Shown here: positions 6,230 through 50,802 of the stretch, one piece after another
How positions within the stretch are numbered: position 1 is the first letter of the stretch
Layout: every line of letters starts with the position of its first letter
Origin: Styela clava
Lineage: Eukaryota
DNA: 64,000 nucleotides
Reading direction: 5' to 3'
NCBI RefSeq assembly: GCF_964204865.1
Contig: NC_135254.1
Span: 21,382,199-21,446,198, forward strand
Notes under the pieces: generated by a model
Told to the model about the DNA's origin: nothing
Databases searched by the model: none
Seen by the model: only the letters and a program-made list of their open reading frames with translations
Position numbers and translations under genes: made by a program

Positions 6230-6299
6230 GCGTGATTGGAAGTTCCAACGTGTTGGTGCACAAGCTGGGAGACGGCGGCTACATATCTGGCGAAGGAGG

Positions 6300-9339: not shown

Positions 9340-10953
9340 TTATTGTTCTACCAATACGGCGCCGCTAACCTTCAGGGTGAGCGAGTAACTTCGCTCAGAG
9401 CCGTCAGAGTTCAAAGAGTTGAAACACAGGGAATGCTGGCTCACAGATTTACTCATGAAGGGTAGGAACAAATCGGAGCTACTTATTCGGTTGGAGGTAT
9501 TTTTGATAAGTATGTCGTCGAAGCAGTTTGGTAGTGCGTTATTATGAAAATCATAAGCTAATGACAATACTTCAAATTTCATCAGATCTTCAACCTTAAG
9601 TATATTTAGTGATTTGAAGTAATGGTCTACAGTCTACACTTTCATATTTTTTTTTCTTGAAGACAATTCTTAAAAATTATTACTATTAAGTACTTTGCAA
9701 TTTTGAGACTCGTGTTTTGTTTCCATGGAGCCAAACTGAGCAACAGTATCGGATGTGGCTGAGTAATAATGATTGAAACATTGCTAGTAAAGCCGATTGA
9801 TTGACACACTGGGAAACCTTGGCAGCAATTGCCAAATTTCTTTTTGTTTTACCAATAACATGTGTGATTTGTGATTTCCAAGATAGTTTTTTATCAAAGA
9901 TAACTTTCAAGAATTTTATTTCACTCACTCTTTCAATTTCTTTGCCATTGAGTGATAAAGATTTTGAGCAATTCAAATTTCTATGCTGATTAGGATGGAA
10001 TAGACAAATTTAGTCTTGTTGGCATTAAGAGATAGTTTATTAACCAGCATCCAACTGTGAATGTTGGCTAGTTCTCGGTTTGCAACAGCGAATAGATCTT
10101 CCAGATTTTTCCCACAGAGAATCAAGTCTGTGTCATCAGCAAACATGATTGACACAGATGAGTCCAGACACCTAGGCATGTCGTTTATATAAGCTAGGAA
10201 GAATAATGGGCCAATTAAAGATCCTTGGGAAACTCCGTGCTTCATGACACAAATATTAGTAGGGAATGAATTGTCATAGTGTACGACTTGCTTTCTGTAA
10301 TGCAGGTAGCTCCGGATCCAATTGAGTGGAATCCCTCTTATTCCATTTTGATACAGCTTACTTAGAAGGATAGAATGGTCTATGGTGTCAAAAGCCTTAG
10401 AAATATCAAGAAATATTCTAATAGCATGTTGCTTTTTTTCAAACGTCTTTATTAATATATGTACCAAGACAAGAGCAGCCATAGCAGTGGAGTGTTGCTT
10501 ACGGAAACCAAACTGATGCGAATACAAAATATTAGTGCTTTCAAAATAATTTGACATTCTACTATAAATTATTTTTTCAAGGATTTTGGAAAACTACATA
10601 AGAAGACTGATAGGCCTATAGTTTCCATAATCAGAAACATTACCCTTTTTAAAAACAGGGAGAATTTTGGCTGCCTTGAAGCTTTCAATGAATAGTCCAG
10701 TGGATAGTGAGAGGTTAAATATATATGTCGGGATATCAATAATATGTTCTAGAATATATTTCAAAATTTTGAATGGAATACCATCAATTCCAAAGCTGGA
10801 CTTTGGCTTCAATTCGTTTATGATGTTTTTAATTTCTAATGATGTGATTGGCCTTAAAAACATAGATGAGCATTCTTGCTCCCCAAGATATAATAAGTGA
10901 TTTTTATCACAGTCTACAGGTTGCGGCATATTGCCAAGCAAGCTTTGTGCCAC
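9340..10953 (-). mobile_element. non-LTR retrotransposon (LINE) reverse-transcriptase fragment, frameshifted and truncated
   Basis: Three consecutive minus-strand ORFs cover this span. 10594..10953 carries the NYRPISLL motif of RT domains 0/1. 9973..10557 carries FGFRK.HST, ..LD.SKAFD.. and the FADDT (YXDD-type) RT catalytic motif. 9686..9976 carries the RT thumb/C-terminal part. Confidence 0.75.
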
Positions 10954-21735: not shown

Positions 21736-23017
21736 CATTATTACGATACTTGTTACGTTTGTGAGATTACCAGAAGCCTGCCCTGATTGTGAACAGCCGA
21801 TTTGGTGTAAATGATTCAGGGCAGAATGACATGATTATTCGACAGGAACTCATTTTTTACCGTACATTGTATTTAGCAGTTTTTGGGTTGGCATTGATTT
21901 AATGCATTTAGTTGTAGAAGCAGGGTTGAACTAGCTTGGCTGCAAGTTCCTTACCAATGGTTTTACATGGAAACACAGTAACAAGTCTGGCGAGTTCAGT
22001 TTTTTAGATGAATGCTTGATAGATACAAACATTTGGTGTTCATGACAAAATGTATGATGTATTGTTTTGCGCAGGTGGTTCGGGAATAGTGGAATAGGGC
22101 AGTACAAAAAATATGGCCATCTCCGAAGTAAATGCTGACTCATGACACACATAAACAATAAAAAATGAATAAAAAGAATTGACAAAGAAAACATTTTGCT
22201 ATAGGTTAACAATTGATTAGGAATGAAGTTATTTCAAAACTTTCCAGAATATTAAAAAAATCGAAGTGATTAAGATTTAGGAGGCAAAGTATATCATATT
22301 ATTCAAATGACATGGGATGATCTCTTGACGAAATGATTGAATTATAAATTATAATCTAATAACATTCAGTTTGTTCGCATCTATTAAAATCACAACTGAT
22401 TCACTACTATACTGAATTTTACATACTGTAAAATATTTTATAAATGATATTCATTACACTGCTAACAACAATGGAATGATTTAAATGCAATTGCAGTGCC
22501 GATAAAATGATCAAATCTTTTTAACAAAAAATGTGACTTTCTATTTTAAAAACAGATAACTAACTATACAACTTTATGTTTCATTTTGTTTGGTACTGAT
22601 TCCACCCCTACATTTTTCTATGAGCATAGGTATTGCTCATTATGGGGCTGAATAGATTAAAGGTGAGTAAAAATTTAGATTTTTGTTGGTGAGCTGAGTT
22701 TTATATTGGGTATCTGGCTATATCTTCATTTCATTGGCGAATTTGTACAGCCAAATTCAACCAACATTAAAAATGAAAGCTTAAAGCTTTTGAATTGGCA
22801 ACACATGATGGAATTTTGCTTTAGGTTAATAGAATTTTGAAATTTGAATTTATAAGCTTCAAAAATGGCTAATGATCTCATATTTTTCAGGAATTGGAGG
22901 GGAGAAGTATTCAAGCTCTTCCAACAATTAAAAAATCCCCAACCAATCGAAAATGCCTCAGGAATAATAGGTGAGTCATTTACTTTTTGCTCTATTGTTC
23001 GTTATCGTCGGAATTGG

Positions 23018-25912: not shown

Positions 25913-27085
25913 CTAAATAGAGGAAGATTCATCATCACTGTCTGATTCATCTGTTTCATCATTTTGAATGGTGAGACTCTCGTAGAACGTATGGTATTGC
26001 GGTGGAATGAGATTTTTTTTACACAGCTTCATTAAGGCACCATATTTTTCCATTGTAATTCCCGGTTTTTTTTTGTAGCTTCGCCTCATTTCATTCATCC
26101 TGGGTAACATATCCAGGGTTCCTGAAATTCTTCGACTCAACCTCACTTTTTTTATGAATGAAACTTCCTGATATTCTTCTTCTGCATAAAGGTACTTGAA
26201 GAAAAACTTATCAGGTTTTTCACCAGAAAACTTGGCCTGCATGATCTTAGACCATTTGATCTTTGATCCATTCACTTTTAGGTTTGATTTGTAAACGTCT
26301 TGAAACATGGTGAGTTTTTCTCCAAATTTGAAATCCAGGATATCACTATGGGACATTCTAGTCATAGTTATATTTCTATTTTTATTCCCTTTAGTCAATG
26401 CTTGTACGATGACAGATTCCCACTGATCGGTGGTAAAGGTATGCAGCCGTTTTGACTCTTTTTCGATAAGAGAATGTGCACAGTCATTCTCGTTTTGGCT
26501 ATGCCCTGTAACAAAAAAGCTTAACGTTATATCTGAAAATCCAAACCAATTAAGGGCAAGGGATAGCATGATGTATACCATGCGGTTGCAATTTTGTCCT
26601 GCGCATCTGTCACAAAAAAGGTACACACTCTTCACACCCTTTTTTTGTAAAAACTTCAAGTAGAGCAACAGTGCAGACGCCACCTCATTTGAACCCTTTT
26701 TTGCTTCTTCCTCATTCCACAAGTAACAATGAACTTCTTTAAAAGACGAGATGTCCGAAACTGTGAAGTTGTAGTTTCGCAGTCTCATGCTATAGTAAAA
26801 TGAGGAACTCTCTCCTGCAGGTGCCAGGAGTGTTTTTTGAAAGTCAAATGCTGATGCTTGAATATGGCTATTGTCTTGTGCTTTTTCTTTTATTTGTGCT
26901 TTGAACACCCTGCTCAAGTTCTTTTCTTGATCATGTTCTGCCTTTGATTTTACTATTTCGGTAGTTCTCAATGAATCTTTTGTATTGTCCCATGCATCAC
27001 ATATGTCACATCGATCCTTTTTGGGTTGATGAAATTTTATATTAAAATTATCATGAAAAATGGACAAGTAAGCTTCGTATTTCAA
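25913..27085 (-). CDS. transposon ORF 2 (390 aa): putative DDE-type transposase catalytic region (family not recognised)
   Basis: Contains spaced acidic residues in conserved-looking blocks (YLFCDRCAGQN ... FFVTGHSQNENDCAHSLIE) and a C-terminal acidic tail. It does not match hAT motifs. It may be one gene with ORF 1 via frameshift, or a separate one (4-nt overlap). Confidence 0.45.
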   Translation of the reverse strand: MKYEAYLSIFHDNFNIKFHQPKKDRCDICDAWDNTKDSLRTTEIVKSKAEHDQEKNLSRVFKAQIKEKAQDNSHIQASAFDFQKTLLAPAGESSSFYYSMRLRNYNFTVSDISSFKEVHCYLWNEEEAKKGSNEVASALLLYLKFLQKKGVKSVYLFCDRCAGQNCNRMVYIMLSLALNWFGFSDITLSFFVTGHSQNENDCAHSLIEKESKRLHTFTTDQWESVIVQALTKGNKNRNITMTRMSHSDILDFKFGEKLTMFQDVYKSNLKVNGSKIKWSKIMQAKFSGEKPDKFFFKYLYAEEEYQEVSFIKKVRLSRRISGTLDMLPRMNEMRRSYKKKPGITMEKYGALMKLCKKNLIPPQYHTFYESLTIQNDETDESDSDDESSSI

Positions 27086-28536
27086 GGGATTCTCAATGTT
27101 ATTTGAGGCAAATATTGATATTTAGACTCCTTTCGAACATAGTGACTTTGAACTGTCTTAAACATACAAATATGTTCAATTACCTTTTCCACTTTTTTTG
27201 GATCAAATCTGTTATGGGGTACAGTTATACCACGCATATCATTTTCAACACTTCCAATAAATTCTTTTGATAATGCTGTTCTAACTTGTTTTCTTGAAAC
27301 ATCAAGAGTTGTGAGGAAAAATGTCTGACAAACCTCAAACTGATCTCCACTTTCCTTCTGAAGAAAATATTTGAAACTAACATCTCTTTTTTTGCGTCTG
27401 ACTTCAATATCTGGTCTCAATCTGCTTCTTTTAATTTTGCATTTTTCAATCATTTTCGTAATATAAATTCTTTTTGACAATATGTTATCTAATTTCCAAT
27501 AATTTTCAAATAAAACTTCTCTGTCCTTGGCAGAAAATATTTCATTGCACTTTTTTTTACATGAACTAGAACATGTTTTCTTTATTTCTCTTTTAGGCAT
27601 CAATCTAATTTCTTTATTTTTTGTTCTGTATTGGTAAGACTGTCCATGCATTCGAGCTTCCTTCCTAATATTTCTCTGCCACTTGGAGATATTTCTTTTT
27701 CTTTTTCTTTCTGTCAAAGGAGTAGGTGTTATCCAGTCTGTTGAACACTGTTCATTAACCTGATTTTCTGTTTGGTCACAAAGCTTATTTATGTCACACA
27801 GATTCCATGTGATGGCAGTACCTTCCTTGTGTTCTACAAGGTTAAAATATGGCCAATGGATCGCAGTTTGGAACACTTTAGTTATAAAAAAACTTCCTTG
27901 TCTATCCTCACAGTGAACACTTCTACACTTTGCTTTGAATATGGGATATCTTTCATAGCATAGAATTACTTCTTCACTTTCGACGACTGAAATGTCAACC
28001 TGGTGCTGTACTGTGGAATTTGATTTATCACTGTCAGATTCATTGTTTTGAGCCGTCCAATAACATGGCATAGACTGAGACTTTTCCTTCTCATAATTAT
28101 AAGTTGGATCTTTATCTGAATCATCATTATAATATTCAAAAGATTCATCTGATAAATTTTCTTCCTGGTCTTCGTTTTGAGAATTTTGAGCTTCAACAAG
28201 GACAAAATCTTTTTCCTCATCACCGATATCAAGTTTTAAAGCATTTTTTGGAACTGAAGTTGTTTGATTGTCAATAAAAAATTTGACTCGAACAGTGTTG
28301 GAGTAGACGCAAACTATCACTCCTTTTAACAGCGTCTTATCTTTATATGGTAAACTATTACTGTATTCACGCTGTTCATTATCGAAATATGTAGCAGGGA
28401 GATAAACTTCTTTTCCTGTTTGCAGAATCTGACTCTCAGTGCTATCCCAACTTCGTGTGCCACAGGGGAATTCAGATTCAGGACCTAACATTGCTTCACT
28501 GATAAATTGTATATAGCTTTGGGAAAAGTTAAACAT
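27082..28536 (-). CDS. transposon ORF 1 (484 aa): acidic Asp/Glu-rich protein with possible N-terminal Tudor/Agenet-like fold and basic Cys-containing middle region
   Basis: Long uninterrupted ORF inside the nested TIR element. It has an N-terminal W..G..V.A.Y.D....Y.G.I..V......V.F pattern, an acidic low-complexity stretch and basic KRKR/KKK clusters (putative NLS or DNA binding). Its stop overlaps the start of ORF 25913..27085 by 4 nt. Confidence 0.5.
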   Translation of the reverse strand: MFNFSQSYIQFISEAMLGPESEFPCGTRSWDSTESQILQTGKEVYLPATYFDNEQREYSNSLPYKDKTLLKGVIVCVYSNTVRVKFFIDNQTTSVPKNALKLDIGDEEKDFVLVEAQNSQNEDQEENLSDESFEYYNDDSDKDPTYNYEKEKSQSMPCYWTAQNNESDSDKSNSTVQHQVDISVVESEEVILCYERYPIFKAKCRSVHCEDRQGSFFITKVFQTAIHWPYFNLVEHKEGTAITWNLCDINKLCDQTENQVNEQCSTDWITPTPLTERKRKRNISKWQRNIRKEARMHGQSYQYRTKNKEIRLMPKREIKKTCSSSCKKKCNEIFSAKDREVLFENYWKLDNILSKRIYITKMIEKCKIKRSRLRPDIEVRRKKRDVSFKYFLQKESGDQFEVCQTFFLTTLDVSRKQVRTALSKEFIGSVENDMRGITVPHNRFDPKKVEKVIEHICMFKTVQSHYVRKESKYQYLPQITLRIP

Positions 28537-31075: not shown

Positions 31076-31252
31076 ATGGTTCAATCTTTGATATATTTTA
31101 GGAATAAGTTGGTAAACAAAAGCCTTCAGAAAAACATAGAAAACAAGAAAAAAGTTATTGTCCCCAATAAAAGATGGCTTCAACATTTCACTGACAAGGA
31201 TGCGAAGGTTGGTTGCCGAAACTTTAAGACCTTGATTCTAGACATGGGATAA
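31076..31252 (+). CDS. PARP4-like gene A, candidate first coding exon (start of PH-like domain, ...NKRWLQHFTDKDAK)
   Basis: An ATG at 31076 follows an in-frame stop at 31046. The exon ends AAG|GTTGGT (donor). The ...WL.HFTDKD.K end is conserved with gene B exon 43163..43222. Further upstream exons cannot be excluded. Confidence 0.4.
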   Translation: MVQSLIYFRNKLVNKSLQKNIENKKKVIVPNKRWLQHFTDKDAKVGCRNFKTLILDMG

Positions 31253-31570
31253 CAGTTCAATGTTGAATTTTTTATCAGGATTGGCAGATTTGAGACATAT
31301 TCATGGGTCTAAATATTTGTATGGGCATTTTTAAAAGCCATAGTTCACTGTTGTGAATAATAATTGCTTCAATATATAACATTGTACGGATAATTGTATA
31401 TGCAGGAAGTTTCTGGTTATTTTTCATATCTTATCCTATTTTAAATATTTGAAATGCTATCATTCACCATTGAATTTGAATTTCAAAGATGATAATAGCT
31501 TTAAGTACTGCAATTTTTATTACTGCTTAAATTATCAGATTGTATGATATATTATTTCTTTGCATGCCAG

Positions 31571-31648
31571 ATAAGGCGACACTTCTGGTGTATAGATGAT
31601 GACTATGTCACACTTTTCTTGACTGAAAGTGAATCACTATTTTTCAAG
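31571..31648 (+). CDS. PARP4-like gene A exon 2 (PH-like domain; IRRHFWCIDDDYVTLFLTESESLFFK)
   Basis: Flanked by acceptor CAG at 31568-70 and donor GT at 31649. It is 78 nt, phase 0. It is 24/26 aa identical to gene B exon 43376..43453, which has the same length and canonical splice sites. Confidence 0.6.
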
Positions 31649-32643
31649 GTAATAAATAGTTCTATAAGCAATTTTGTCTACCATATCCAACATTGAAGTT
31701 GTTTAAATTATCTATCATGATTCATGTCTTATCAATTTCATAATTTCTTTTATTTTGCTTTTTTTATTTATAAGAAGATACCGCATAAAAAAATCATGGT
31801 AATTAGCTGAAGCAATCAATGTATTCATTGTGTTATCTCATATAGAAAAGCAGAATTGCTGGGGCGTTAAATGAGTGCTCATAAGGAAGGAAGTGTTAGG
31901 CAACATATCAGACATGTGATGATTCAGTGTCAATCAAAATATACAGACCATAAACAAAGTAATAGACAACTTGGGAACCAATCTAAGTGGGTTGAAGCAG
32001 AGAATAAGAGGATGAAGCAGGCCATAATATTTACCTCATGGAATGAAATGACAAAAAAATTCATCTGGCAATAATCTGACAATGGCTTTATTGTGTTACT
32101 ACATGTGATCATTAAATTTTATGCTGTCTTGAAGTTGTTTAAGGAATTGTATAACATTAATACCCAAACTGTGTTAGGTATTCTACTAGTGGTTATGAAA
32201 ATTTACTGCAAGTGAATGAATATGTTTTTCTATGATTCCGTTGGTTTTACAATAATTATTATAAATTGTTCCAAGTTTCTGTCTTATCTTCCTTTGACTC
32301 AATACCACTCAGGAATGCTGTGTATAGTTTTTCTAACTCGAAATGCTAGTTCTCGACAATTTAATAATCATTGGGCAGGGATCATGTACCTATCTGTATA
32401 AGACATAACTTATAATGCGCTCTGAGTGATTTTGTACTTTAAAAAAGTCAGCTATTCTGTGGAGGTGATGGCGATTGTTAATTAATAATCGTAGTGCAAT
32501 TATAAGACCATTCTGTGGTTCAATCCGGCTTTATATAAGCAATTTTTTACGTCATTTTTTACGTCATTCAATTAATAACATTCAATGAAATTTGAAACTC
32601 AGTACCATACCTCATTTATGTCCATCGATTTTTCTTCTCACAG

Positions 32644-32774
32644 AAAATTCTTTTGACGGATATCATGTCAATCAATAAGGGCAAATGTTCTCAATCATTG
32701 AAATATGATTTCAAGTTAACTTTATCAAATTTGACTATTTTTGTCTTTGAGGATTTATCAAAGGATTTTGACAT
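32644..32774 (+). CDS. PARP4-like gene A exon 3 (PH-like domain; KILLTDIMSINKGKCSQSLKYDFKLTLSNLTIFVFEDLSKDFD)
   Basis: Acceptor TTCTTCTCACAG and donor GTGAGT. It is homologous to gene B exon 43703..43824, which is 9 nt shorter and in the same phase. Confidence 0.55.
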
Positions 32775-32909
32775 GTGAGTCTTTAATTGTTGTTGTATTG
32801 TTGGTTTTTAAATTCCTCGTATGTGTTACTATTTGTTAACATTTAGCTGTTATCAGTTGGTAAGTGTAGTTTGTTTCTATTTGAGCCATAACCTTGTCTT
32901 TGCTTCAAG

Positions 32910-32992
32910 GAATCAAGAAAAGCATTGGTATGACATACTGAAACAAGCGCATTCGTCTGCTGTAAATCATGAGAAGATTGCCAATGTGAATG
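32910..32992 (+). CDS. PARP4-like gene A exon 4 (PH-like C-terminal helix; ..EKHWYDILKQAHSSA..)
   Basis: Acceptor CTTCAAG and donor GTAGGC. It is 83 nt, identical in length and phase to gene B exon 44039..44121, and carries the conserved HWY..LK.AHS.AV helix. Confidence 0.55.
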
Positions 32993-33282
32993 GTAGGCAA
33001 TGGGTTTAAATGAACTATTTTATTGCTGTATTTTCATCCCAATGATAATATATATATATTTTATATTGCCAAGATAAAATTGGGAATTGGGTATACTTCA
33101 TAACACTTCAATTATCATTGTATATTGTAGCACAGCTGATGTTTGGTGAATAGAGATATACTTTTTATCTCATGTCAAAATTAAAAATTCACTCATAGTC
33201 TCTATGCTTCTTGCACTTCTATTAATTGGAACATTTTCAATTTAATATTGTTCACCAAACAAGTTTGATTTTGTATTGTCAG

Positions 33283-36200
33283 AAAATGAAAGAGTTCCAA
33301 AGAAGAAAAATATATTTGATAAACTTCAATTCGCCCTTGAACTTGGAGATGCATCATTTGAAACAAAGAAGACTTTACGTGAACAGATAACAAGTCATGG
33401 AGGACAAATCTCATACATATTGACCAGTAATACTGATTTTATAGTTCTTTGCAAGGAATTGATTGCCCAATCTATGCATTCATATAAAATTCGCAAAGCA
33501 GTTGCATTTGGCGTACCTATTGTTAGTGAAGAATTTCTCACAGAATGTGTAGGGAAGAATCAACTTGTCGATTTCATGGATTTTGCTCCGCAGACTGATA
33601 CAATTCACAATTTTTCGTTGGGAAAAATATCATCACAACCCATCAATGTAAAAAAGTTTGTTTCTAAAAAATTGGACCTTGGAAAAATTGTACAATATAA
33701 ATTAGAATCTGGTGACTGTCCTTGTTTTCCAAATAAATATGAAGTTCCCAAATTTTCGATTTTAACAAAAAGTTTTGAAGAGAATGGTGAAATTAATGAA
33801 ATGTGTTGTGTTGAAGCACAGGTTGGTATAACTGCAAATCAGAATAATCAAAAGATGTATAGAGTCATGGTTTCATATAACAATATTAGCACTTGCTCAA
33901 CTCATCACGTGTATCCATTAAATAATTCATTTGAGTTAGTCCAGTGTTATGAAAAACTTGTAACACAGTTCCTTGATGATGGAATGAAACGAGCTATTGG
34001 AATTTCAAAGGATCAATTCTCTGATATTGTTTCACCTTCACTCAACCTTGTTTTAACGGAAATGAAAATTTCATCAGGAATTCTCCATCCTGAAGTCGCA
34101 CGATTAGTCAAAACTATTTGGCTGGATTCGCTAGACGAAATAATGATGACATTTGGTGTCGGGCCATATGGTATTGATGTTGAACAAGTCAGAAATGCAT
34201 TGATTGTTCTGATGCAAATAGAAAAGTCCATCAAAGAGAAAGATTTCAAATCAGCTTTATCTGACAAATTTTACCACTTTATTCCACAGACAGATGATAA
34301 AAAAGAACCAATTGACAGCATTCAAAAAATTGCAAAGAAAAGAGAATTATGTCAGCTTTTAAAAGACATCACTTTAGTGAATGAGACTTCTTGGTTTTCT
34401 AAGGACTGTAATGATTCTTTATCACAATACACCGCATTGAAGTGTGCTATAATGTGGATTGACCCAAAAGAAAAAGAATATAAACTCATCAAAGACACAC
34501 TTCCTGACATCGATGGAAAAACATACAAATTGCAAAATATATTCAGAGTCAGTCGCTCTGTTGAAAACTCGCAGTTTAAATCAGATATTGGCAATACTAA
34601 ACTTCTATTTCATGCATCCCACCCTCATAATTTTGTTGGTATTTTATCGAGAGGTTTAATGTTGCCACTCACACTGTCTAGTGAGTATGGAGTCTCAAGG
34701 AGTGATGAAGGAAACCTTGGCGCTGGAATTTATTTCTCAGATTCATTTTGGATGTCTTCAAAATTTACCGCACGAAGCCAAAGTCGAGGTTCCAGAATAA
34801 TGCTTGTTAGTGAAGTAGCACTGGGAAAAGTATTCAACACAAAGGAACCTATGGCCCATTTATTGGCTGCACCAGTGGGTCACGATAGTGTGAAACGCAC
34901 GCATGCCACAGATGCAGTTAAATCTGATGCTTCAGAATATGCAGTGTATAACAAAAATCAACAGAGGATGTGCTACATCATTGAATTCACAATTGATGAT
35001 GATAGTTTGGTTAATCATGACAAAGTAGTGATACCTTTAAGTTTTAAGATGAATAAGAACACTACCGCTGAAATTGCTGCTGAGCGTGAGAATTTTGAAC
35101 CAAAAGTTGAGGAAGTTAGATATGGCCTGATCATGGAATCAAAAGATATTTCTGCAATATTAGAGGAAGTTCATATCAGAGCAAAAGTTATTGATTTGGT
35201 GTCAGAAGTCACTATTTTTCAGTCGTACATCAATACAACCAATAAAACTGTTGAAGCAAAATATGTTTTTCCTCTCACTGAAAACGCTGCTGTATGTGGA
35301 TTTGAAGCTTTTATAAATGACAAACATGTAATAGGAGAAGTTAAAGAGAAAGAACAAGCCCACAAGGAATATAAAAAAGCAGTAAGCGAAGGTCATGGAG
35401 CTTATTTGATGGATGAAGAGAAATCTAATGTATTTTCTGTTAGTGTTGGTAACATTCCTCCTGCAGCTCGCGTAATCATTAAAATTAGTTATGTTGCTGA
35501 GCTCGAAACTACTAACGAACCTGACAGTAATGTTTTATTTACATTACCAGGAAGCATTGCTCAATGGGAGGAAAAATCTGTGTTGCTTTCAAGTTCTGCT
35601 ACTCAAGAAGTTACGGAATCAACTTCTGTTTCAAATGAGAAAAAATCTTCAGTTATAATATCAATTGATATGCCGTTTGATATTCTCGATATCACTTCAC
35701 CTACTCATAAAATTGTAATGAAAAAGACATCTACAAAGGCTTGTGTAAAACTGCAAAAGTCAATTAACCTGGATGGAAACAATTTTCGTTTGCTGATCAA
35801 AGTAGCTGAAATTCATGTTCCTCGTATTTGGATTGAAAAGGAAAATGAAGAAAGCAAAGATCAAGTGGCAATGGTGACTTTTTTTCCTGAATTTGAATTC
35901 GATGCAGTAGAGAATTTCAATTGCACAGTAATGTTGGATATGTCGAATTCCATGAAAGGATCTGCTGCATGTCATTCTAAGCATTTATGTTCATTGCTTA
36001 TCGAAAATTTGCCAGATCAATGTGATTTTAATGTCATCTCATTTGGGTCATATTTCGAAGAGGTGTTCATTGGATTTGAAAATGTTTCAACTACTTCTAA
36101 AAAACAAGCAAAAGATTTTATTACATGTTGTAAACCATCTTTTGGAGGATCTGATCTTTTTTACATTCTTAATTCAGTCTTCCTACTTCAAAATAATTCA

Positions 36201-39200
36201 TACAATAATGAGTTACATAATATATTCCTCTTTTCTGATGGTCATTTGTCTGAAGAGGAAAGACTTTTCAGGCTTTGTAAGGAAATTTCAAAAACCAGTC
36301 ATTGTCAAACAAGAATTTTTACATTTGCTGTTGGAAATTCACCAGATAACCACACTCTACAGAGTTTATCTATATTAACTGGAGGGTCTCATGAACAATT
36401 CTTATCTTCGTCAAAGAGGACATGGAAAAGACAATTAAGCAATCAACTATTCAATGCTAAACAACCTGCATTAACTGATGTACATATTGATTGGTGCAAC
36501 TATGATAACAAATCCGATGGTTTTCAAGATTCAACTGTTTTGCAGGTTCCAGAAAAAGTAAAATGTGTGTTCAGTGGATCTCAACTTGTCGCATACAGTT
36601 ATGTTCCAAACTGTCTGAAAGCAACTCTTTGTGCTAATATTAATGGAAAAGAGTTCTCTACAATGGTAAATGCGAACGGATTATCAAAAATTACTGGAAT
36701 GACATTGCACAGACTTGCAGCAAAAGCTGTGTTCAAGGAACATGACTGTGGTAGACTTGCTGATGATGCTTTGTGTGATCAGATGTTGAAAGAGGAAAGA
36801 AAGTCAATTATTATTTCAATGAGTATGAAATACTCAGTTGTTTCAAAATATACAAGCTTTGTAGCTATTGAGGAAAGAAAACCTGGAGAAGATTTAAGCA
36901 TAACATGTGGACCATCTCTATCTAATCTTGTTGATGAATCTTTCATTGATATCATTTCTGAAGTAACATGGGGGGCTGAAGAGAAATCTGTGGAAGAAAA
37001 TGTGGATGAACTACTGAAGAAGTCTTTGCAAATTCAATCAAGTTCTATACTGCAATCTCGGGATTTAGCTCTGGAAGCAAAAGCATTGCATAGCACATTG
37101 GAAGAAAAAGATCCACTGAGGAAGTTACGAATATGTGCGACGTTATGTAAATTGGATGTGAACAGCGATCAACTTGATGCATGGCTTGATTTGAAAACCA
37201 TGTTGTTGAAAACTGATAAATCACTGAATTTTGAAGTGATGAACACGATCGCTAAATTTGACAATTCATCGCCCAGACATAATTTGTTGGATATTTTTAG
37301 TAGCTGTTTTCCTGAACACTGTTCAGTCCATCTCCAATCTATTCCTGAAATTTTTCAGCCACTTGCCATTGGAGGATACACTGAAATCTGTCATTTTTAT
37401 GAAACTGTGGGAGAATGTTTTAGAGATTTTCCTCTTTTTTGGGAAGAGTTTCATGATGTTTGTTGTTGTGATGATAAGAGTTATAAGGATGTTTCTTTGG
37501 CATTGAAAGTCTTGATCAGAGAATTGAAGTTTATAAATAAACCTCACAAAAAGAAAAAAAGGTACAAGCCCAAATTATGCCCATTTTCAATAGCCACCCC
37601 ACCATCATCACTACCTAGGCCTCTACAAGCTGTTCCACCACATCTAACACCAATACCAGCAAATTCATCTCTATTTGGATCAGCAAGATCAGGTATTTCA
37701 CCATTACCACCACAGCAATCTTTTCTCTTTGCATCATCTGGTCCTCCGCCACATCCACCACCTGGATCTGACTTTACACCATTACCACCACCATTACCAC
37801 CGAAACCATCTGTATTTGGATCAGCAATTCCACCACCACAACTACTACCTGGATCAGGTATTTCACCATTATCACCACAGCAATCACTTCTATTTGGATC
37901 ATCTGTTCCGCCACCTCCACCACCTGGATATGACTTTCCACTACCACCAAAATCATCTCTATTTGGATCATCTGTTCCCCCACCACAACCACCTCCGCCA
38001 CCTGGATCTGTCTTTCCACCATCACGACATCAACAACCACCAAAATCATCTCTATTTGGATCATCTGTTCCCCCACCACGACCACCTCCGCCACCTGGAT
38101 CTGACTTTCCACCATTACCACCACCACTACCACCAAAATCAGCTCTATTTGGATCATCTGTTCCCCCACCACAACCACCTGGATCTGCCTTTCCCCCATC
38201 ACCACATCGACAACCACCAAAATCATCTCTATTTGGATCATCTGTTCCCCCACCACGACCACCTCCGCCACCACTACCACCAAAATCATCTCTATTTGGA
38301 TCATCTGTTCCCCCACCACGACCACCTCCGCCACCACTACCACCAAAATCATCTCTAGTTGGATTAGATGTTCCCCCACCACGGGCACCTACACCACCTG
38401 GATCTGCCTTTCCACCATCACCACCACAATCATCTTGTTTTGGATCAAGTCCTCCACAACCACCGCTTCCAAAATTTAGATCTGTCATCCTACCACAATT
38501 GCGAAGTTCTGGATTTGTATCAGCCACTCCAATATCGCAACAGTATCAAACTGAATCTGCCATACCACCTCAATATCATTTAAGCAATATAACTTCTTCA
38601 TTTCTTTCGATGACTGACCCACTAGTTCCATCGCAATCTTCAGTCCAATCAGCAGCAGGTTTTTCATTTGGTTTGGCCAGGTCTTTTGCATCGCGAAATT
38701 CAATGCGGTCAGTTGCTTCATTTGGATATTCGTCCACTTCCAGGCAATCAAACACCCCACTACCTACACAAGCTGCGTGCATGGTATCAAATGCTGAACT
38801 CACTTCAGATGATAGTTTTGACACTAAACCATCATATCATCATTCTTCTGAGGTTGCTAGAAGTAATTTTTATGAAGAGTGTGAGGATTCATATTTGTTA
38901 CCAAAAACGAAAAATCTATTATCCAGAAAATCCGAACAATCTCAAGATATTGAAACCAAACAAATTTTTGGTGGAAGATCTAAATTTGACAATTCACATG
39001 AACCACAGGATATTTATGAGAGCTTGGAGGATCTTAAGTCACAACAATTAAAGACCAGTGGAAAAAGAAGAAACCCACCAGTAGTTCTTACAAGGTCTTC
39101 TCAAAGTTGTGAAGTTATGTTTGATTCACTTGAATGTGTTCAGACAGATACATCTACATTAAACTCTGAAAGTTCATCTGATATGTATGAAGATATAATA

Positions 39201-39230
39201 TTGTTAAATCAACATTATGACCTGGTTATG
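33283..39230 (+). CDS. PARP4-like (vault-PARP-like) gene A giant exon: BRCT, PARP helical regulatory domain, PARP catalytic (ART) domain, VIT, vWA, Pro-rich repeat region, Ser-rich tail
   Basis: A 5.9-kb open frame with a splice acceptor (TTGTCAG) at 33276-33282. It has a BRCT-like N-terminus. An HD-like block (..ALSDKFYHFIPQ..) follows. The ART motifs are LLFHASHPHNFVGILSRGL, GAGIYFSDSF, LVSEVALGK and ASEYAVYN, giving an H-Y-E triad. VIT spans KYVFPLTENAAVCGFEAFIND...VIIKISYVAELE, then the vWA MIDAS motif DMSNSM follows. The donor GTAAGT sits at 39231. Confidence 0.85.
37660..38460 (+). repeat. intragenic tandem repeat, about 10 units of 90-96 bp, encoding (K.SSLFGSSVPPP[RQ]PPPPPGSDFPPLPPPLPP)n
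   Basis: Recurrent TCTCTATTTGGATCATCTGTTCCCCCACCAC(G/A)ACCACCTCCGCCACC units are visible. Poly-His, Gly-rich and Val-rich ORFs in the other frames and on the opposite strand are by-products. Confidence 0.85.
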
Positions 39231-39581
39231 GTAAGTTATTTTTATGAACTATTTTACTTGATTACCGATGAATATATCTAGACCTGCCGTGTTACTTCCC
39301 AATTATATCTATCTGCCTGAACTAACGCAGACAATATGCCAGGAATTTAATATTTTATGAAATGTCTGTACTATTTGCAATAATTTGTTGAATGGGTTGA
39401 AGAAATGTAAATTTAGCTTTGTTTTTTGACACAAAAAACACTTCATATTGAGTGTTCATTTCATTATTTGTTTGTTCATTCTTATTTCTATACAAATCGA
39501 TTTATTGATGAGTAAAGCCATCCACATTTATGAAGTAATGCTGAAAGTGCATAAAATTGGTAATTCACATTTTATCAACAG

Positions 39582-40121
39582 ATTGAGGACGAGGATGACG
39601 AATTAGAACAGTCTAGCGGATCCATCAGTGCTGCATGGGATGATGATTCTGAATGCACGGAATATGAGTGGAAAATGGTTAAAGCTATGATGAAACTCCT
39701 TAACCTCACAGTTAGTGAACTAATGGAAATTTTCAAATCTGGATTAAGTCCAGATGGCTTTTGGAAATTTCCTAGCAATGAAGCCATCATGTCTGAAGAG
39801 TTTTCTGAAATTGAAGTTAAACTATTGAAAATTTATCGAGAAATAGTCATTTCTGCTGGTGCGCTATCTTTTGGTAGCAAAGTTTTGTCCACAGTGTTAG
39901 ATATGCTGTATACAGCGATTATCATAAAAATTCTTAAATTTATTAATGAATCAAGTAAAGTGTATGACATGATAAAAGATGCTGAAAACTGGTTGAAATT
40001 AGCTGATGCGAAGCAACCATTTTTATATGAACGGCTAGAGTTAGGATCATCTTGGGAAATGGCTGCAAATGCAGTGATTGTCAAAGTGTCTGAGGCTGTG
40101 CTCAATTCTATCTCTGGTTAG
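39582..40121 (+). CDS. PARP4-like gene A terminal exon (conserved C-terminal module; stop at 40119-40121)
   Basis: Acceptor TTTATCAACAG at 39571-81, in frame with the donor at 39230. The translation IEDEDDELEQ...GFWKFPSNEAI...VISAGALSFGSKVLSTVLDMLYTAII...LELGSSWEMAANAV is about 55% identical to the C-terminus of gene B (GFWRFPDEETI...VISAGAQSLGSQVLSLVTDMLLTAIV...LELGSSWEMAAKLV). Confidence 0.7.
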   Translation: MEDEDDELEQSSGSISAAWDDDSECTEYEWKMVKAMMKLLNLTVSELMEIFKSGLSPDGFWKFPSNEAIMSEEFSEIEVKLLKIYREIVISAGALSFGSKVLSTVLDMLYTAIIIKILKFINESSKVYDMIKDAENWLKLADAKQPFLYERLELGSSWEMAANAVIVKVSEAVLNSISG

Positions 40122-42490: not shown

Positions 42491-43162
42491 TAATATGTGA
42501 ATTGTTTGTTTTACAGGACTTTGAAGTGAAAAGTAAGCATATTTGTCATAAACTGAAGAAGAGCAATTGCAGATTGAAGTCTTGTAGTGAAAAAATGTGA
42601 GTCTGATATCCCCAAGAAAATCAAGCTCTAAATTTTTTTTTGATTGAGTGTATTGAAATTGTGGGGCCATTACCGTGTCAATGTTTTCAAGTTATAGTAA
42701 GATACAAAATCATTTGAAGGGTTTAGGATATATTTTAATACCTAATCTCGTCAATTTCCTATTAATATTCGATCGCAAAATGGATATTTTACAACTAAAA
42801 CTATAAGAATTATTATAGTGAATGTGTCATATCATTCTGGTTTGTTTTGTGATTTTAGTGTATGCTGAAAGCTGTGACGACACATTTCTAAACCTACCGT
42901 AATTTGAAACATGGTTATAATAACCTTAAAGTTGCACTTGTGTTTTGAACTGAAAAAATAATTTTCCTATATTATTAGCATCACAAATTTGCCGATTATT
43001 ATTTATCATTGGTTAGCATATCCCTCCACATGGCTATCTGATAGGTGATACTATAATATCGAAAGCACTCTAAAACCAACTTGAATATACTCTTTGTTGT
43101 TGTTTAGGAAAAATCTAGTACTGGATAGTACTGGATCTCTGCAGAACAGACATGAAAAGGAA

Positions 43163-43222
43163 ATGAACCTCATTGATTCTAATAAAGGATGGTTGTATCA
43201 TTTCACAGATAAAGATCCAAAG
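43163..43222 (+). CDS. PARP4-like gene B candidate first coding exon (MNLIDSNKGWLYHFTDKDPK)
   Basis: An ATG at 43163 lies in an open frame. A possible acceptor TTGTTTAG sits at 43099-43106, so this may be an internal exon. Donor AAG|GTTTAT. It is homologous to the end of gene A exon 1. Confidence 0.4.
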
Positions 43223-43375
43223 GTTTATAAATAAGTAATTTCCACCCATGATATTTATATATCGAAGACTAACTGAGAGACTTTGAATTTGTAAACTGAA
43301 TAGGAAGGTATTTCTCAAGACCAGATTTCTAAATATAAATTATACATGATTTTGGAATATTTTATTGATTGTCAG

Positions 43376-43453
43376 GTACGACGACACTTCTGGTGTGTTG
43401 ATGATGAATATGTCACAGTTTTCTTGACAGAAAGTGAATCATTGTTTTTCAAG
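43376..43453 (+). CDS. PARP4-like gene B exon 2 (PH-like; VRRHFWCVDDEYVTVFLTESESLFFK)
   Basis: Acceptor TTGATTGTCAG and donor GTAATG. It is 78 nt, paralogous to 31571..31648. Confidence 0.6.
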
Positions 43454-43702
43454 GTAATGTGGATGAAGTTCATTGTTTAATATTCAGATACATCTGCCAT
43501 ATGTAATCTGAAAAGAAGAATAGGTATCGAATATTTAACATGCTATCTGAAAGTTTAATTAATGCAAATGGTATTTAAAATGAACTGAGAAAATTGGGAA
43601 TGTAATGTAAAGCATTAAAGTAGCATTCTGTTAGTTCTTTCAGTATAAAATAGTATTTTACATTTCATGATAGAGTGATGATATATGTTTTCACCTATTA
43701 AG

Positions 43703-43824
43703 AAAATTTCATTAGCAAGCATCAAATCAATCAAAGAGAGCAAGAAGTCCAAGTGCTTGTTCAAGCTGGTTCTATCCAACATGACTATTTTTGTGACTAG
43801 CAGTGATTCTGAAAAGTATAAAAT
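43703..43824 (+). CDS. PARP4-like gene B exon 3 (PH-like; KISLASIKSIKESKKSKCLFKLVLSNMTIFVTSSDSEKYK)
   Basis: Acceptor CCTATTAAG and donor GTAAGA. Paralogous to 32644..32774. Confidence 0.55.
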
Positions 43825-44038
43825 GTAAGAGTTTATGATTATACCAATCATAATTTTGTTATTGTAAAAATCTAGGATTATTGTGAACATAAAATTACAT
43901 ATTAATTCTACTGATTTGTGAATTTACTTTTTGATAAATAAAATTGTAAAATTTAAAATACCTTAACCGGTGTTTCACTGTGGGATAATATTTTAGATGC
44001 ATTTGATTTTTAAGTTGAAGTATATGATTTTTGTTAAG

Positions 44039-44121
44039 GATTCTGATGAACCATTGGTATAATATGCTTAAAGAGGCCCATTCTGCCGCAGTAAAACGGG
44101 AGAATACTGTGCTACCTCTTG
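44039..44121 (+). CDS. PARP4-like gene B exon 4 (PH-like C-terminal helix; ..NHWYNMLKEAHSAAV..)
   Basis: Acceptor TTTTTGTTAAG and donor GTATGT. It is 83 nt, paralogous to 32910..32992. Confidence 0.55.
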
Positions 44122-44996: not shown

Positions 44997-45073
44997 ATTT
45001 AGACAACACTAATCCCAGTTGCAAAAAAAAAACAGTTCTTAGGGATCATTTTTTACCTATTTGTTGTTTTCAG

Positions 45074-48000
45074 AACAAAAAAAACTCTCAAAACATGGAA
45101 GCATTTTCAAGAAACTTCAGTTTTCTCTGGAACTAGGGGATACGACGTATGAAGCAAAGAAACATTTGCGTGAACAGATCACTAGTAATGGAGGACAAAT
45201 TTCCTATATTTTAAATGGAAATACTGATTATCTGATTGTGTGTGAGAGAAAAACTTCCACATCGAGTAAGTCCTACAAAATTCACAAGGCAAGAGAACTA
45301 GGAATACCCATTGTGAGAGAGATCTTCATAACAGAATGTATTGAAAACGATAAAATTGTTGATTTTCTGGATTACGTTCATGGAAAACCAATTGTTGAGA
45401 GTTATTCTGCTGGGAAAATATTGGTTTCTAAGGCAAAGCCGAAGGAGCCTTCTGAAAGATTCGAAGTAGAAAAAGTCATTAAATATAAAGTTGATGCTGG
45501 AGACTGCCCTGTTTTTCCAGATAATTTCCAAGTAGCCAAATACTCTATTCTCGCAAAAATTACTGAAGAAAGAACACCAAATGATATGTATTGTGTTGAA
45601 ACACAGGTTGGGTTACACGATAACTGCAAAACAATATTTCGCGTCATGGTTTCCTATAAAAATGTCAGTGGTGTATCATTTTGTCATGTTTATCCTGTGC
45701 AAACTTCATCAGAGGTGGTTCAGTGTTATGAGTCCTTGGTAAAGCAGTTTATCGCTGATGGATTCAAGAAAGTCATTGGAATTCCTGGCGATGGGTTCTC
45801 TGGAATTGCTTCTGCTCCACTGAGTTTGCTTTTAAATGAAATGAAAATTTCATCTGGAATTATTCATCCCGAGGTCGCTCGATTGGTAGAATCTGCGTGG
45901 TTAGAATCTCTTTGTGAAATAATGACAAATTTTGGTGTTGAACCTTTTACTATACATCATGAACAAATTAGGAATGCAATGATTGTTCTGATGCAGATAG
46001 AAAATTCAATCAAAAGAAAAAGTTTTAAATTGGAATTATCAAATAAGTTTTACCAGTTTATTCCCCAAAGAGATGGTAGGAAGGAACTGATAGACAACAT
46101 GCAAAAGATCGCAAAAATGAGGGAATTATGCCAGCTTTTGAAAGACATAACCTTGTCCAATGAAACTTCTTGGATTTCTAAAGACTTCAATGATCGCCTG
46201 TCACAATATACCGCATTGAAGTGTGCTATAATGTGGATTGACTCGAAAGAAAAAGAATATAAACTCATCAAAGACTTACTTCCTGATAATATCGATGGAA
46301 AAGGATACAAAGTACAAAATATATTCAGAGTCAGTCGCTCTGTTGAAAACTCGCAGTTTAAATCAGATATTGGCAATACTAAACTTCTATTTCATGCATC
46401 CCATCCTCACAATTTTGTTGGTATTTTATCGAGAGGTTTAATGTTGCCACTCACACTGTCTAGTGAGTATGGAGTCTCAAGAAGTGATGAAGGAAACCTT
46501 GGCGCTGGAATTTATTTCTCAGATTCATTTGAAATGTCTTTGAAGTTTACAGCTCGAAGCCAAAGTCGTGGTTCCAGAATAATGCTTGTTAATGAAGTAG
46601 CACTGGGAAAAGTATTTTATACAAAGAATCCCATGACTGATTTGATAGTCGCGCCAGAAGGCCATCATAGTGTAAAAGGTACAGGTCTAACAAAATTTGA
46701 TGATGTTGACGACATTGCATCTCATGCTTCAGAATACGCGATATATGATGCAAGGCAACAGAAGTTACGCTACCTTATTGAATTTACAACGACTGATGAC
46801 ATCATGACTATTTATGACAGAGTTCCAGTCCATTTACCTTTTAAACAAAAAGAGGATAAGCAGGTGAATGAAACAGTGGGTGATAATGAGAATTTTGAAC
46901 CAAAAGTTGAGGAAGTTAGATATGGCCTGATCATGGAATCAAAAGATATTTCTGCAATATTAGAGGAAGTTCATATCAGAGCAAAAGTTATTGATTTGGT
47001 GTCAGAAGTCACTATTTTTCAGTCTTACATCAATATGACCAATAAAACTGTTGAAGCAAAATATGTTTTTCCTCTCACTGAAAACGCCGCTGTATGTGGA
47101 TTTGAGGCTTTTATAAATGACAAACATGTAATAGGAGAAGTCAAAGAGAAAGAACAAGCTCAAAAGGAATATAAAAAAGCAGTAAGCGAAGGTCATGGAG
47201 CTTATTTGATGGATGAAGAGAAACCTAATGTATTTTCTGTTAGTGTTGGTAACATTCCTCCTGCAGCTCGCGTAATCATTAAAATTAGTTATGTTGCTGA
47301 GCTCGAAACTACTAACGAACCCGACAGTAATGTTTTGTTTACATTACCAGGAAGCATTGCTCAATGGGAGGAAAAATCTGTGTTGCTTTCAAGTTCTGCT
47401 ACTCAAGAAGTTACGGAATCAACTTCTGTTTCAAATGAGAAAAAATCTTCAGTTATAATATCAATTGATATGCCGTTTGATATTCTGGATATTACTTCAC
47501 CTACTCATAAAATTGTGACGAAAAAGACATCTACGAAGGCTTGTGTAAAACTGCAAAAGTCAATTCACCTGGATGGAAATAATTTTCATTTGCTGATCAA
47601 AGTAGCTGAAATTCATGTTCCTCGTATTTGGATTGAAAAAGAAAATGAAGAAAGCAAAGATCAAGTTGCAATGGTGACTTTTTTTCCTGAATTTGAATTT
47701 GATGCAGTAGAGAATTTCAATTGCACTGTAATGCTGGATATGTCGAATTCCATGGAAGGATCTGCGGCATCCCATTCCAAGCATTTGTGTTCATTGCTGA
47801 TCGACAATTTGCCAGATCAATGTGATTTTAATGTCATCTCATTTGGGTCATATTTCGAAGAGACGTTCATTAGATATGAAAATGCTTCGACTACTTCTAA
47901 AAAACAAGCAAAAGATTTTATTACATGTTGTACACCATCTTTTGGAGGATCCGATCTTTTTTACATTCTCAATTCAGTATTCCTACTTCAAAATAATTCA

Positions 48001-50802
48001 TACAATAATGAGTTACATAATATATTCCTCTTTTCTGATGGTCATTTGTCTGAAGAGGAAAGACTGCTTGGGCTTTGTAAGGAAATTTCAAAAACCAGTC
48101 ATTGTCAAACAAGAATTTTTACATTTGCTGTTGGAAATTCACCAGATAATCACACTCTACAGAGTTTATCTATATTAACTGGAGGTTCACATGAACAATT
48201 CTTATCTTCATCAAAGAGGACATGGAAAAGACAATTAAACAATCAACTATTCAATGCTAAACAACCTGCATTAACTGATGTACATATTGATTGGTGCAAC
48301 TATGATAAGGAATTCGATGGTTTTCAAGATCCAACTGTTTTGCAGGTTCCAGAAAAAGTAAAATGTTTGTTCAGTGGATCTCAACTTGTCGCATACAGTT
48401 ATGTTCCAAACTGTCTAAAAGCAACTCTGAGTGCTAATATTAATGGAAAAGAGTTTTCTACAATGGTAAATGCAAACGAATTATGCAAAATCACTGGAAT
48501 GACATTGCACAGACTTGCAGCAAAAGCTGTGTTCAAGGAACATGACTGTGGTAGACTTGCTGATGATGCTTTGTGTGATCAGATGTTGAAAGAGGAAAGA
48601 AAGTCAATTATTATTTCATTGAGTGTTAAATACTCGGTTGTTTCAAAATATACAAGCTTTGTTGCTATTGAGAAAAGAAAACCTGGAGAAGATTTAAGCA
48701 TAACATGTGGACCATCTCTGTCTGATCTTGTTGATGAATCTTTTATTGATATCATTTCTGAAGTAACATGGGGGGCTGAAGAGAAGTCTGTGGAAGAAAA
48801 TGTAGATGAACTACTGAAGAAGTCCTTGCAAATGCAATCAAGTTCTATACTGCAATCTCGGAATTTAGTTCTGGAAGCAAAAGCATTGCATAGCACATTG
48901 GAAGAAAAAGATCCCCTGAGGAAATTACGAATTTTTGCAACTTTATGTAAATTGAATGTGTTCGAGGATAATTTCAATGGATGGACTGAAATGAAGAATT
49001 TGTTGTTGACAAGAGGCAAAGTGTTGAATTTTGATGTGATAAATGCTATCACAAATGCTGAGGATTTGACTTTCCTACAAGATTTGTTTGTTGTATTCAA
49101 GAGTTGTTTTCCTGAACACTGGACAATCCAACTTAGTTCTGTTCCAAAAAAGTTTCAAGCACTTTCTGTTGGCGCTTTTTCCGAAATTGTTGGTTTTTGT
49201 GAAGATTTTCCAGACTGTTTTGAAAAGGTCTCCATATTCTGGGAAAAGTTTCGCAAGATCTCATGCCATGATGAAAAGGCAGATAAATATCTTTATTTTA
49301 AAACAAAAGAATTGATCAGAACATTCAAATCTTCCATTCTCCCGCTGCAACTATCAGATATATCTGAATATATTGAAAAAGAGAAGACTGTCGTTGGGAG
49401 ACTGTGTGCAAAATCAAGGCGTAGTTCTTTCCTGCACAGGCCTCATAAAACTTCTTTGATGTCTGAATCAAGTGCTAAAAAATCATCTGCACCAAAAGTA
49501 CATTCTGATCAAACAGATCATTTCGGGGGTATTCCCACTGGAGTTGAAGGCACTGTTAGCGATGATATAAATAGGAATGTTGGTAAAGCTGTTATTTTTT
49601 CTCCACAGTCTCCATTGAAAACAGTTTCCGTTCGACGATCGAGATCTATGAAGAAGAGAGTTATTAGTAAATACACTCCAATGCGTAATGATTCAGAACT
49701 TAGTCCTACATCACCAGTTATCAGTGAGAAAGCACAATCTTCAGCTTTCCACAATATTTCTTTAAAGTCAGCTCAGTTTAAAGTTCAGCGAAGACCAATT
49801 GCATCTATAGATGACTGCTTGTGTCTGCCAGATGTGACTCAGACATCTTTTCAAGACCTCCATCATGACCTAAAATTGTTATCCAATTATGATGATCTTT
49901 TGTCTGCTGCTTCAAAGTCTGACGATGCACAGCAACAACTTAATTATGAAGACTTCTTTTCAGATCCATGTACTCAAGAAATTGAAAGTATCAGTGTGAG
50001 TGAATTTTATGGATTTCCAAGTCAGTTAGAGGTAAAAACGGACTCCATTGGAGTGTTGGAAAAAGAAGAATTAAAATCATCGTATAGTGAAACGATGCAA
50101 TCCTCAAAATCTAGTTCTAATGGTAGCTGGTTATCTAGGTGCGATGATGAACATAAACAAGTTAATAATGTTTCACATGGAGTTCGTTATGTACCGGATT
50201 ATTTATCTGAAGAGATGGAACCAGACGAAAATGAAGAATATTTTGAAGATTTTCTTTCTCCAATAAGCACAAGTTCGTTTTGTGATACATTTTATACTGA
50301 TCTTGAGCATGATAAATATGCCGATGCATCCAACATTCTCGGAACAATAATGAAACGATTTAATCTCTCTGAGAGTAAATTAGTGGATGGTCTTGAACAT
50401 TGTGCAACACTTGGTGGATTTTGGAGGTTTCCAGATGAAGAAACAATTTCTTCTAATGAGCTATCTCCAGCTGAATATCAAATGCTTTCATTATTTCGCA
50501 ATGTTGTAATCTCGGCAGGTGCTCAATCTCTTGGCAGTCAAGTTTTATCATTAGTCACAGACATGTTGTTAACTGCAATTGTTTTGGAAATTCTTAAGCT
50601 TGTCGACGATGGAAATAACATGATTGTGAAGAATATGCTTGAGCGTGGCAAAAAATGGTTAAAATATGTCGATACATTAAACCCATCTCTGTATAAACGA
50701 CTTGAATTAGGTTCGTCTTGGGAAATGGCAGCAAAGTTGGTGATCAATCAATTATCTGAGAAGCTGCTGGAAGTAACAGATATAGCAATGCAGTCCAAAT
50801 AG
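45074..50802 (+). CDS. PARP4-like (vault-PARP-like) gene B giant terminal exon: BRCT, PARP HD, PARP catalytic, VIT, vWA, long Ser-rich divergent region, conserved C-terminal module; stop at 50800-50802
   Basis: A 5.7-kb open frame follows the acceptor TTGTTGTTTTCAG at 45061-45073. It has the same ordered domain motifs as gene A (LLFHASHPHNFVGILSRGL, GAGIYFSDSF, LVNEVALGK, ASEYAIYD, VIT block, DMSNSM). It lacks the Pro-rich repeat array and the 3' intron of gene A. Confidence 0.85.

Follow-up and report, generated by a model that had tools for sequence, protein, structure and literature searches.

A mosaic of young tracts within old divergence in two tandem PARP4-like genes of the tunicate Styela clava, very probably the product of interlocus gene conversion

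The PARP4-like gene pair and its mosaic divergence

A window of 64,000 nucleotides (nt) of Styela clava DNA, whose own coordinates are used for all positions given here, contains two PARP4-like (vault PARP) genes, called A and B in the following, that lie in tandem on the same (+) strand, 11.8 kb apart. Both appear as very long uninterrupted open reading frames (ORFs) of the + strand, at 33276-39281 (A) and 45061-50802 (B). The closest database proteins are 'protein mono-ADP-ribosyltransferase PARP4-like' models of the tunicate S. clava: the giant-exon translation of gene A is an exact part of XP_077968685.1 and that of gene B an exact part of XP_039269916.2, two S. clava PARP4-like proteins that are placed on one 24.9-Mb record. 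Pfam domains follow the same order in both genes, namely BRCT, PARP_reg, PARP, VIT and vWA, which is the order of PARP4. The best solved-structure match of the catalytic region is human PARP4 (E=2e-45), and sequence alignment with the human PARP4 structure 8SX1 locates the predicted catalytic His, Tyr and Glu motifs (FHAS/LHGS, GIYFSDS/GIYFSDS and SEYAVY/DEFVVY), which gene B carries in the same form as gene A. These domains are encoded by one giant exon in each gene:

33283..39230, + strand: giant exon of gene A, recognised from the ORF and its Pfam domains (acceptor AG at 33281-33282, donor GTAAGT at 39231); encodes BRCT, PARP_reg/HD, the PARP catalytic domain, VIT, vWA and a Pro-rich disordered repeat region
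45074..50802, + strand: giant exon of gene B, with the domain order of A; reaches the stop codon and lacks a 3' intron

The divergence between the two genes is strikingly uneven. Based on a protein-guided codon alignment, Nei-Gojobori distances and maximum-likelihood change points, the pair falls into five segments, which differ in nucleotide identity, in synonymous and non-synonymous divergence (dS and dN) and in the ratio of the latter two (omega):

A 33283-34421, B 45076-46200, + strand: 5' flank with the BRCT, WGR-like and HD regions; 66.7% nt identity, dS 1.51, omega 0.20; old divergence
A 34422-34834, B 46201-46616, + strand: block 1, the second tract; 94.4% nt identity, dS 0.16
A 34835-35086, B about 46617-46886, + strand: island, read as unconverted; 61.8% nt identity, dS 1.47, dN 0.41
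A 35087-37132, B 46887-48932, + strand: core tract; 96.0% nt identity, dS 0.12, dN 0.021
A 37133-37520, + strand: alignable part of the 3' flank; 63.8% nt identity, dS 0.87, omega 0.49
A 37133-39230, + strand: the whole 3' flank of old divergence, made up of the last structured part and the disordered linker, the latter essentially unmatched in B

The dS contrast between tracts and flanks is about ten-fold. With values of 0.12-0.16 within the tracts and 0.87-1.51 outside them, it bears out an earlier note on this DNA, according to which a single duplication date does not explain the mosaic; the segment-wise comparison of identity and dS, akin to the check that the note suggested, finds dS far from uniform and the boundaries sharp. 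The change points of the core lie at 35087 (support 35087-35092) and 37132 (support 37122-37161), in good agreement with the limits A 35083-37120 / B 46888-48920 that had been put forward for it, and those of block 1 at 34422 and 34834, which bears out a second high-identity block in the catalytic domain. The left edge of the core can be located to about 5 nt, since nearly all codons differ up to 35086 and the first difference thereafter is found at 35225. The core corresponds to amino acids ~605-1286 of the gene A protein and holds about 80 differences between A and B; 86 are counted over 35087-37154, 55 of them at third positions. Its similarity had been overestimated: the interval 35083-37120 is 95.9% rather than 97-98% identical, and its 84 differences in 2038 nt are more than the 'only a handful' first described. 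The estimate of ~70% identity for the N-terminal coding DNA is close to the 66.7% of the 5' flank, while the view that the C-terminal halves can barely be aligned holds past A 37520, where the two proteins are not meaningfully alignable, with the exception of the C-terminal domain, in which alignment resumes at 46% amino acid identity. At the nucleotide level, blastn pairs A 33321-37372 and B 45112-49172 with an overall identity of 83.8% and detects no similarity between the two loci outside the coding exons, the introns and intergenic DNA being unalignable.

What the tracts encode

The core tract covers the whole ITIH-like VIT-vWA module, and its best solved-structure match is human PARP4 residues 621-1222 (E=5e-122). 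The ITIH-like VIT-vWA arrangement has been described as one structured unit (PMC10450202), whose partners, cargo or other macromolecules, have only been proposed (PMC12280208). The term 'substrate-facing core' that the tract had been given is therefore unsupported. Block 1 spans the last part of the helical regulatory domain together with two thirds of the ADP-ribosyltransferase (ART) domain, counted from its N-terminal side, and contains the His and Tyr motifs. The catalytic Glu motif lies in the island between the two tracts, which codes for the remaining, C-terminal ART portion and for the linker that leads to VIT.

Downstream of the core, the linker of gene A carries tandem Pro-rich units at 37938-38398, with periods of 63, 93 and 177 nt and the motif PPKSSLFGSSVPPPxPPPPP. 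Its composition and Pfam matches are Nucleoporin_FG-like, to which gene B has nothing comparable, and the copy number of the repeat varies, the older RefSeq model having one unit fewer than the window. In the same position gene B has an unrelated stretch rich in Ser and acidic residues. In primates, the disordered linker is the fastest-evolving region of PARP4 and is under positive selection (PMC4038475, PMC10450202), and the linkers of A and B correspond to it in position. The C-terminal helical domain that follows is conserved in both genes and in the outgroup introduced below and has no Pfam match; its match to the MVP-interaction region of human PARP4 (residues 1666-1704) is non-significant (E=0.3).

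Near-identity beyond chance and beyond constraint

Besides the two S. clava genes themselves, a protein search matched only distantly related PARP4s of tunicates and vertebrates and a Logan sequence with 45% identity to both A and B. The latter, a PARP4 of 1899 amino acids from run SRR10746997 (P0003, locus L001), served as the outgroup. A GENECONV-style maximal-fragment test with 10,000 permutations was carried out on the 2122 variable sites in the alignment of A, B and this outgroup. The maximal fragment shared by A and B (A 35087-37114 / B 46887-48914) scores 456, against a null distribution with a mean of 21 and a maximum of 51 (0/10,000), and a second fragment at A 34538-34834 scores 71 and also exceeds the null maximum (0/10,000). 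A silent-only version of the test, restricted to third positions in codons for the same amino acid, agrees with the all-site result (0/10,000). The blocks of near-identity thus exceed chance by far, and the conversion test for which the earlier note had called comes out positive whether all sites or synonymous sites only are considered.

Measured against the outgroup, no part of the protein is better conserved than the core and block 1, for which dN is 0.34-0.40 compared to 0.55-1.0 elsewhere; the corresponding dS is saturated in each of the five segments. When the divergence between A and B is normalised accordingly, dN(A,B) amounts to 0.056 of the mean dN to the outgroup in the core and to 0.073 in block 1, as opposed to 0.51, 0.41 and 0.47 in the 5' flank, the island and the 3' flank. 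Compared with the N-terminus, the core is under a constraint that is about 1.4-fold higher judging from the outgroup, whereas its dN between A and B is about 13-fold lower; even core windows with an identity to the outgroup of just 23-40% reach 87-100% when A is compared with B. In each of the diverged segments A and B are about equidistant from the outgroup. Given the outgroup-normalised dN contrast, together with the saturated dS to the outgroup, neither constraint nor a low mutation rate can explain the block. Diversifying selection on the flanks, which had been raised as an alternative, does not fit a saturated dS and an omega of 0.2-0.5; the flanks rather represent old divergence under purifying selection.

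Sequence versions and annotation

The newer RefSeq models agree exactly with the window. In the older models (XP_039269913-916.1), about 25 residues of A and 6 of B deviate from it (~1%), and these differences, along with a frameshift near 38912, identify them as a different sequence version. This older and independent protein set reproduces 32 of the 33 amino acid differences between A and B in the core, which argues against an artefact. The bias towards third positions and the omega of 0.18 in the core reflect separate evolution of the two copies under purifying selection after homogenisation.

The frameshift affects the older gene A models XP_039269914.1 and XP_039269915.1, which end early and lack the C-terminal domain (~38905-39048). 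Both the window and the newer gene A model read through ~38912, and the frameshift either is polymorphic or stems from a mistake in the older assembly. The older annotation lists the products of the locus under consecutive accessions as four isoforms, as though of a single gene (X1 and X4 from B, X2 and X3 from A), while the newer annotation treats the products of A and B as separate PARP4-like proteins. The near-identical 2 kb may have contributed to the initial isoform labelling.

Origin of the mosaic

Interlocus gene conversion after an old tandem duplication is very probably the best explanation of the mosaic. The earlier note's proposal of conversion is upheld by the dS contrast, the permutation test, the outgroup-normalised divergence and the recurrence in an independent protein set. 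According to this scenario, a PARP4-like gene would have duplicated in tandem long ago in the Styela lineage, and much later non-allelic conversion between the direct-repeat copies would have replaced about 2.05 kb of one of them, corresponding to the VIT-vWA module. A further 0.41 kb, in the catalytic domain, would have been replaced in that event or in another of about equal age, with an island of 252 nt skipped, and the differences of ~4% that now separate the copies, mostly synonymous (omega ~0.18), would have accrued since. The locus-wide duplication is old judging from the saturated flank dS and the unalignable non-coding DNA, and two patches that are about ten times younger, with old divergence on either side of each, are the signature of a non-reciprocal transfer, which interlocus conversion or, equivalently, a double unequal exchange would leave; conversion, as opposed to a double unequal crossover, is the inferred mechanism. 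The predominance of synonymous changes among the post-conversion differences indicates that both copies are still under purifying selection.

The third-position differences in the core are evenly spread (dispersion 0.8, p=0.47) and the synonymous divergence of block 1 is indistinguishable from that of the core (Fisher p=0.68), which is consistent with a single age for both. The simplest history would be a single event, or a pair of events close in age, that left a discontinuous tract. Nested younger sub-tracts within the core were considered and rejected: the differences at all positions are mildly over-dispersed (p ~0.007) but those at third positions are not, so that the clustering stems from non-synonymous changes and not from additional conversions. 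In absolute terms, the core dS of 0.12 is about seven times the genome-wide heterozygosity of S. clava, which is 1.72% (PMC7540406). The conversion is hence young relative to the duplication, and only in this relative sense does the earlier 'recent' apply, as it is not recent in population terms. The tract boundaries may reflect homology-dependent pairing, in that only the conserved segments would still have been similar enough. Interlocus conversion is most frequent between copies in tandem position, in the same orientation and at a short distance (PMC3966223; bioRxiv 10.1101/135152), conditions that favour it between A and B, two tandem copies that share their orientation and are separated by 11.8 kb.

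Several observations weigh against this explanation. A GC-bias signature is frequent, though not obligatory, in converted DNA, and the tracts show no rise in GC content at third codon positions, with 0.24-0.25 in the core compared to 0.26-0.34 in the flanks. The mean conversion tract in other animals measures a few hundred base pairs (bioRxiv 10.1101/135152), against which a uniform tract of 2 kb is long. Conversion between copies whose flanks had already diverged by ~30% is expected to be inefficient, and for this reason the core was perhaps kept similar by earlier, undetectable rounds of conversion. The sequences compared are A and B of S. clava plus one outgroup, and the data from these three fix neither the direction nor the number of events. 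When polarised with the outgroup, 4 core changes are derived in B, 9 in A and 19 cannot be assigned, which is uninformative about the donor. The two RefSeq versions were also searched for polymorphism shared between A and B; the one candidate, I/M at A residue 1253, is more simply a new mutation in A, given that the outgroup and B both have M.

Two alternatives would dispense with conversion altogether. If the core and block 1 simply evolved slowly after a single duplication, owing to constraint or a low mutation rate that includes synonymous sites (an embedded element or codon bias, for instance), these blocks should be the most conserved ones, as they indeed are when compared with the outgroup. 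This history is nevertheless very improbable, since the segments differ only ~1.4- to 2.5-fold in constraint while dN between A and B falls ~13-fold and dS ~10-fold. Moreover, synonymous change has not been halted within the core, given its saturated dS to the outgroup, the transition at the boundary takes place abruptly, within ~5 nt, and windows of the core that are poorly conserved remain nearly the same in A and B. An assembly artefact, in which one copy of the core was filled from the other by collapse, mis-joining or polishing, has in its favour that near-identical 2-kb blocks of tandem genes are a classic site of mis-assembly; it was judged here from the assembled sequence and the RefSeq protein sets. 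An artefact would have to account for some 80 differing sites with the codon bias of evolved coding DNA (55/86 at third positions, omega 0.18) and for the recurrence of all but one of the core amino acid differences in the older RefSeq set, and it is accordingly extremely improbable.

Two further alternatives retain conversion and alter its history. The polarity could be reversed, with A and B as young duplicates (dS ~0.12) and three segments of one copy overwritten from a third, distant PARP4 paralogue; two sequences do not by themselves give the polarity, and formally the same mosaic results. This would take at least three replacements as well as the complete divergence of all introns and intergenic DNA. 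In addition, only two PARP4-like genes of S. clava are among the database matches, no additional PARP4 fragments were found within the window, and the near-equal distance of A and B from the outgroup holds in every diverged segment, all of which renders reversed polarity highly unlikely. A long-running concerted evolution deserves more serious consideration, although we still regard it as the less probable history. Homogenisation would have acted repeatedly, possibly under selection, on the ITIH-like module and on a portion of the ART domain, so that a dS of 0.12 dates the last round only; elsewhere it would have ceased when pairing was prevented by divergence or by selection for difference. 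In support of this, conversion needs high similarity (PMC3966223; bioRxiv 10.1101/135152), whereas the flanks imply that ~30% of their nucleotides had by then diverged, conservation is highest in the converted segments, and lasting islands of divergence have been described in converting paralogues (PMC3728101; bioRxiv 10.1101/2025.10.29.685298). Then again, the even spread of third-position differences over 2 kb, free of nested younger sub-tracts, points to a single last event with none since, and earlier rounds leave no trace in two sequences. A functional extension of repeated homogenisation is unlikely and correspondingly tentative: recurrent conversion, tolerated or favoured, might keep the VIT-vWA module and part of the ART domain matched to a shared partner such as the vault interior, while three parts are held apart, chiefly the disordered linker but also the nucleic-acid-binding N-terminal region and the last part of the catalytic domain. 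If true, S. clava would have two vault PARPs with a shared chassis and differing target-recognition parts, akin to a small innate-immune diversification module in a tunicate.

Gene models and surroundings

Apart from the giant exons, the following coding exons and one intron were assigned to the two genes:

22885-22971, 31100-31210, 31568-31654, + strand: small 5' exons of gene A, plus two more ahead of 33006 (32632-33006)
39231-39581, + strand: intron of gene A, 351 nt, GTAAGT...CAG
39582..40121, + strand: last exon of gene A, encoding the conserved C-terminal helical domain, 46% identical to the C-terminus of B
42511-42597, 43136-43225, 43373-43453, 43700-43825, 44040-44120, + strand: small 5' exons of gene B, equivalents of those of A

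A single exon of ~6 kb codes for nearly the whole protein (~1,900-1,980 codons) in both A and B. The paralogues differ in the presence of a 3' intron, which in gene A (39231-39581) precedes the exon for the C-terminal domain, whereas gene B is uninterrupted there (50300-50500); otherwise introns are kept among the small exons of the 5' end only. The outgroup contig L001 (333-6032) is likewise uninterrupted, but may be a transcript assembly. The 5' exons of A and B encode an N-terminal extension of ~165 amino acids ahead of the BRCT domain, with conserved stretches such as RRHFWC[IV]DD[DE]YVT[LV]FLTESESLFFK. One 87-nt exon among them is ~85% identical between A and B, and the extension has no Pfam match.

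The window is ~36% GC and poor in long ORFs. The remnants of hAT, Pao/BEL and reverse-transcriptase elements that it contains are compatible with an animal genome. The ORFs derived from transposable elements all surround the PARP4-like locus:

5345-7253, 9973-10557, 25913-28536, 62714-63595, - strand: ORFs derived from transposable elements

They include a hAT transposase (DUF4371 and a hAT dimerisation domain), a reverse-transcriptase fragment, two adjoining ORFs that contain DUF7869, and a Pao/BEL peptidase.

Significance and comparison with known systems

The mosaic has practical consequences, as any dating or phylogeny of the S. clava PARP4-like pair should treat converted and unconverted segments separately, and the near-identical 2 kb will lead to multi-mapping of short reads. 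The pair also documents a lineage-specific duplication of a vault PARP in which the structured ITIH-like module is shared and the disordered linkers are completely different. This difference echoes the rapid evolution of the linker in vertebrates and provides a small lead for the function of vaults and PARP4. No description of PARP4 duplicates in tunicates was found in the literature searched.

Genes A and B resemble vertebrate PARP4 in their domain order (BRCT, HD/PARP_reg, ART, VIT and vWA) and in the H-Y-E motifs, and they share with it a variable disordered linker between the ITIH-like module and the C-terminal helical domain (PMC4038475, PMC10450202). In contrast to the one copy of vertebrates, S. 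clava has two in tandem, and their small 5' exons add the N-terminal extension of ~165 amino acids. Whereas in human PARP4 the variable region alone makes up exon 30 (PMC4038475), the ~6-kb exon of A and B encodes nearly the whole protein.

Mosaics that arose by interlocus conversion have been described for the HMA4 copies of Arabidopsis halleri (bioRxiv 10.1101/2025.10.29.685298), for col-12/col-13 and fog-2/ftr-1 of C. elegans (PMC3966223) and for the GOT1 paralogues of Tigriopus (PMC3728101). Like these, the S. clava genes are tandem copies in the same orientation that combine sharply bounded near-identity, synonymous sites included, with a background of old divergence, and they display an island of divergence between converted blocks and conversion where similarity peaks. 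The S. clava case differs from them in concerning a new gene family and a new lineage, the tunicates, and in a tract of ~2 kb that is uniform in age and devoid of a GC-bias signature, and it is known from the sequence of one species. Among examples of this known process it is a new one, unusually clean and rather long, and it leaves the knowledge of conversion itself unchanged.

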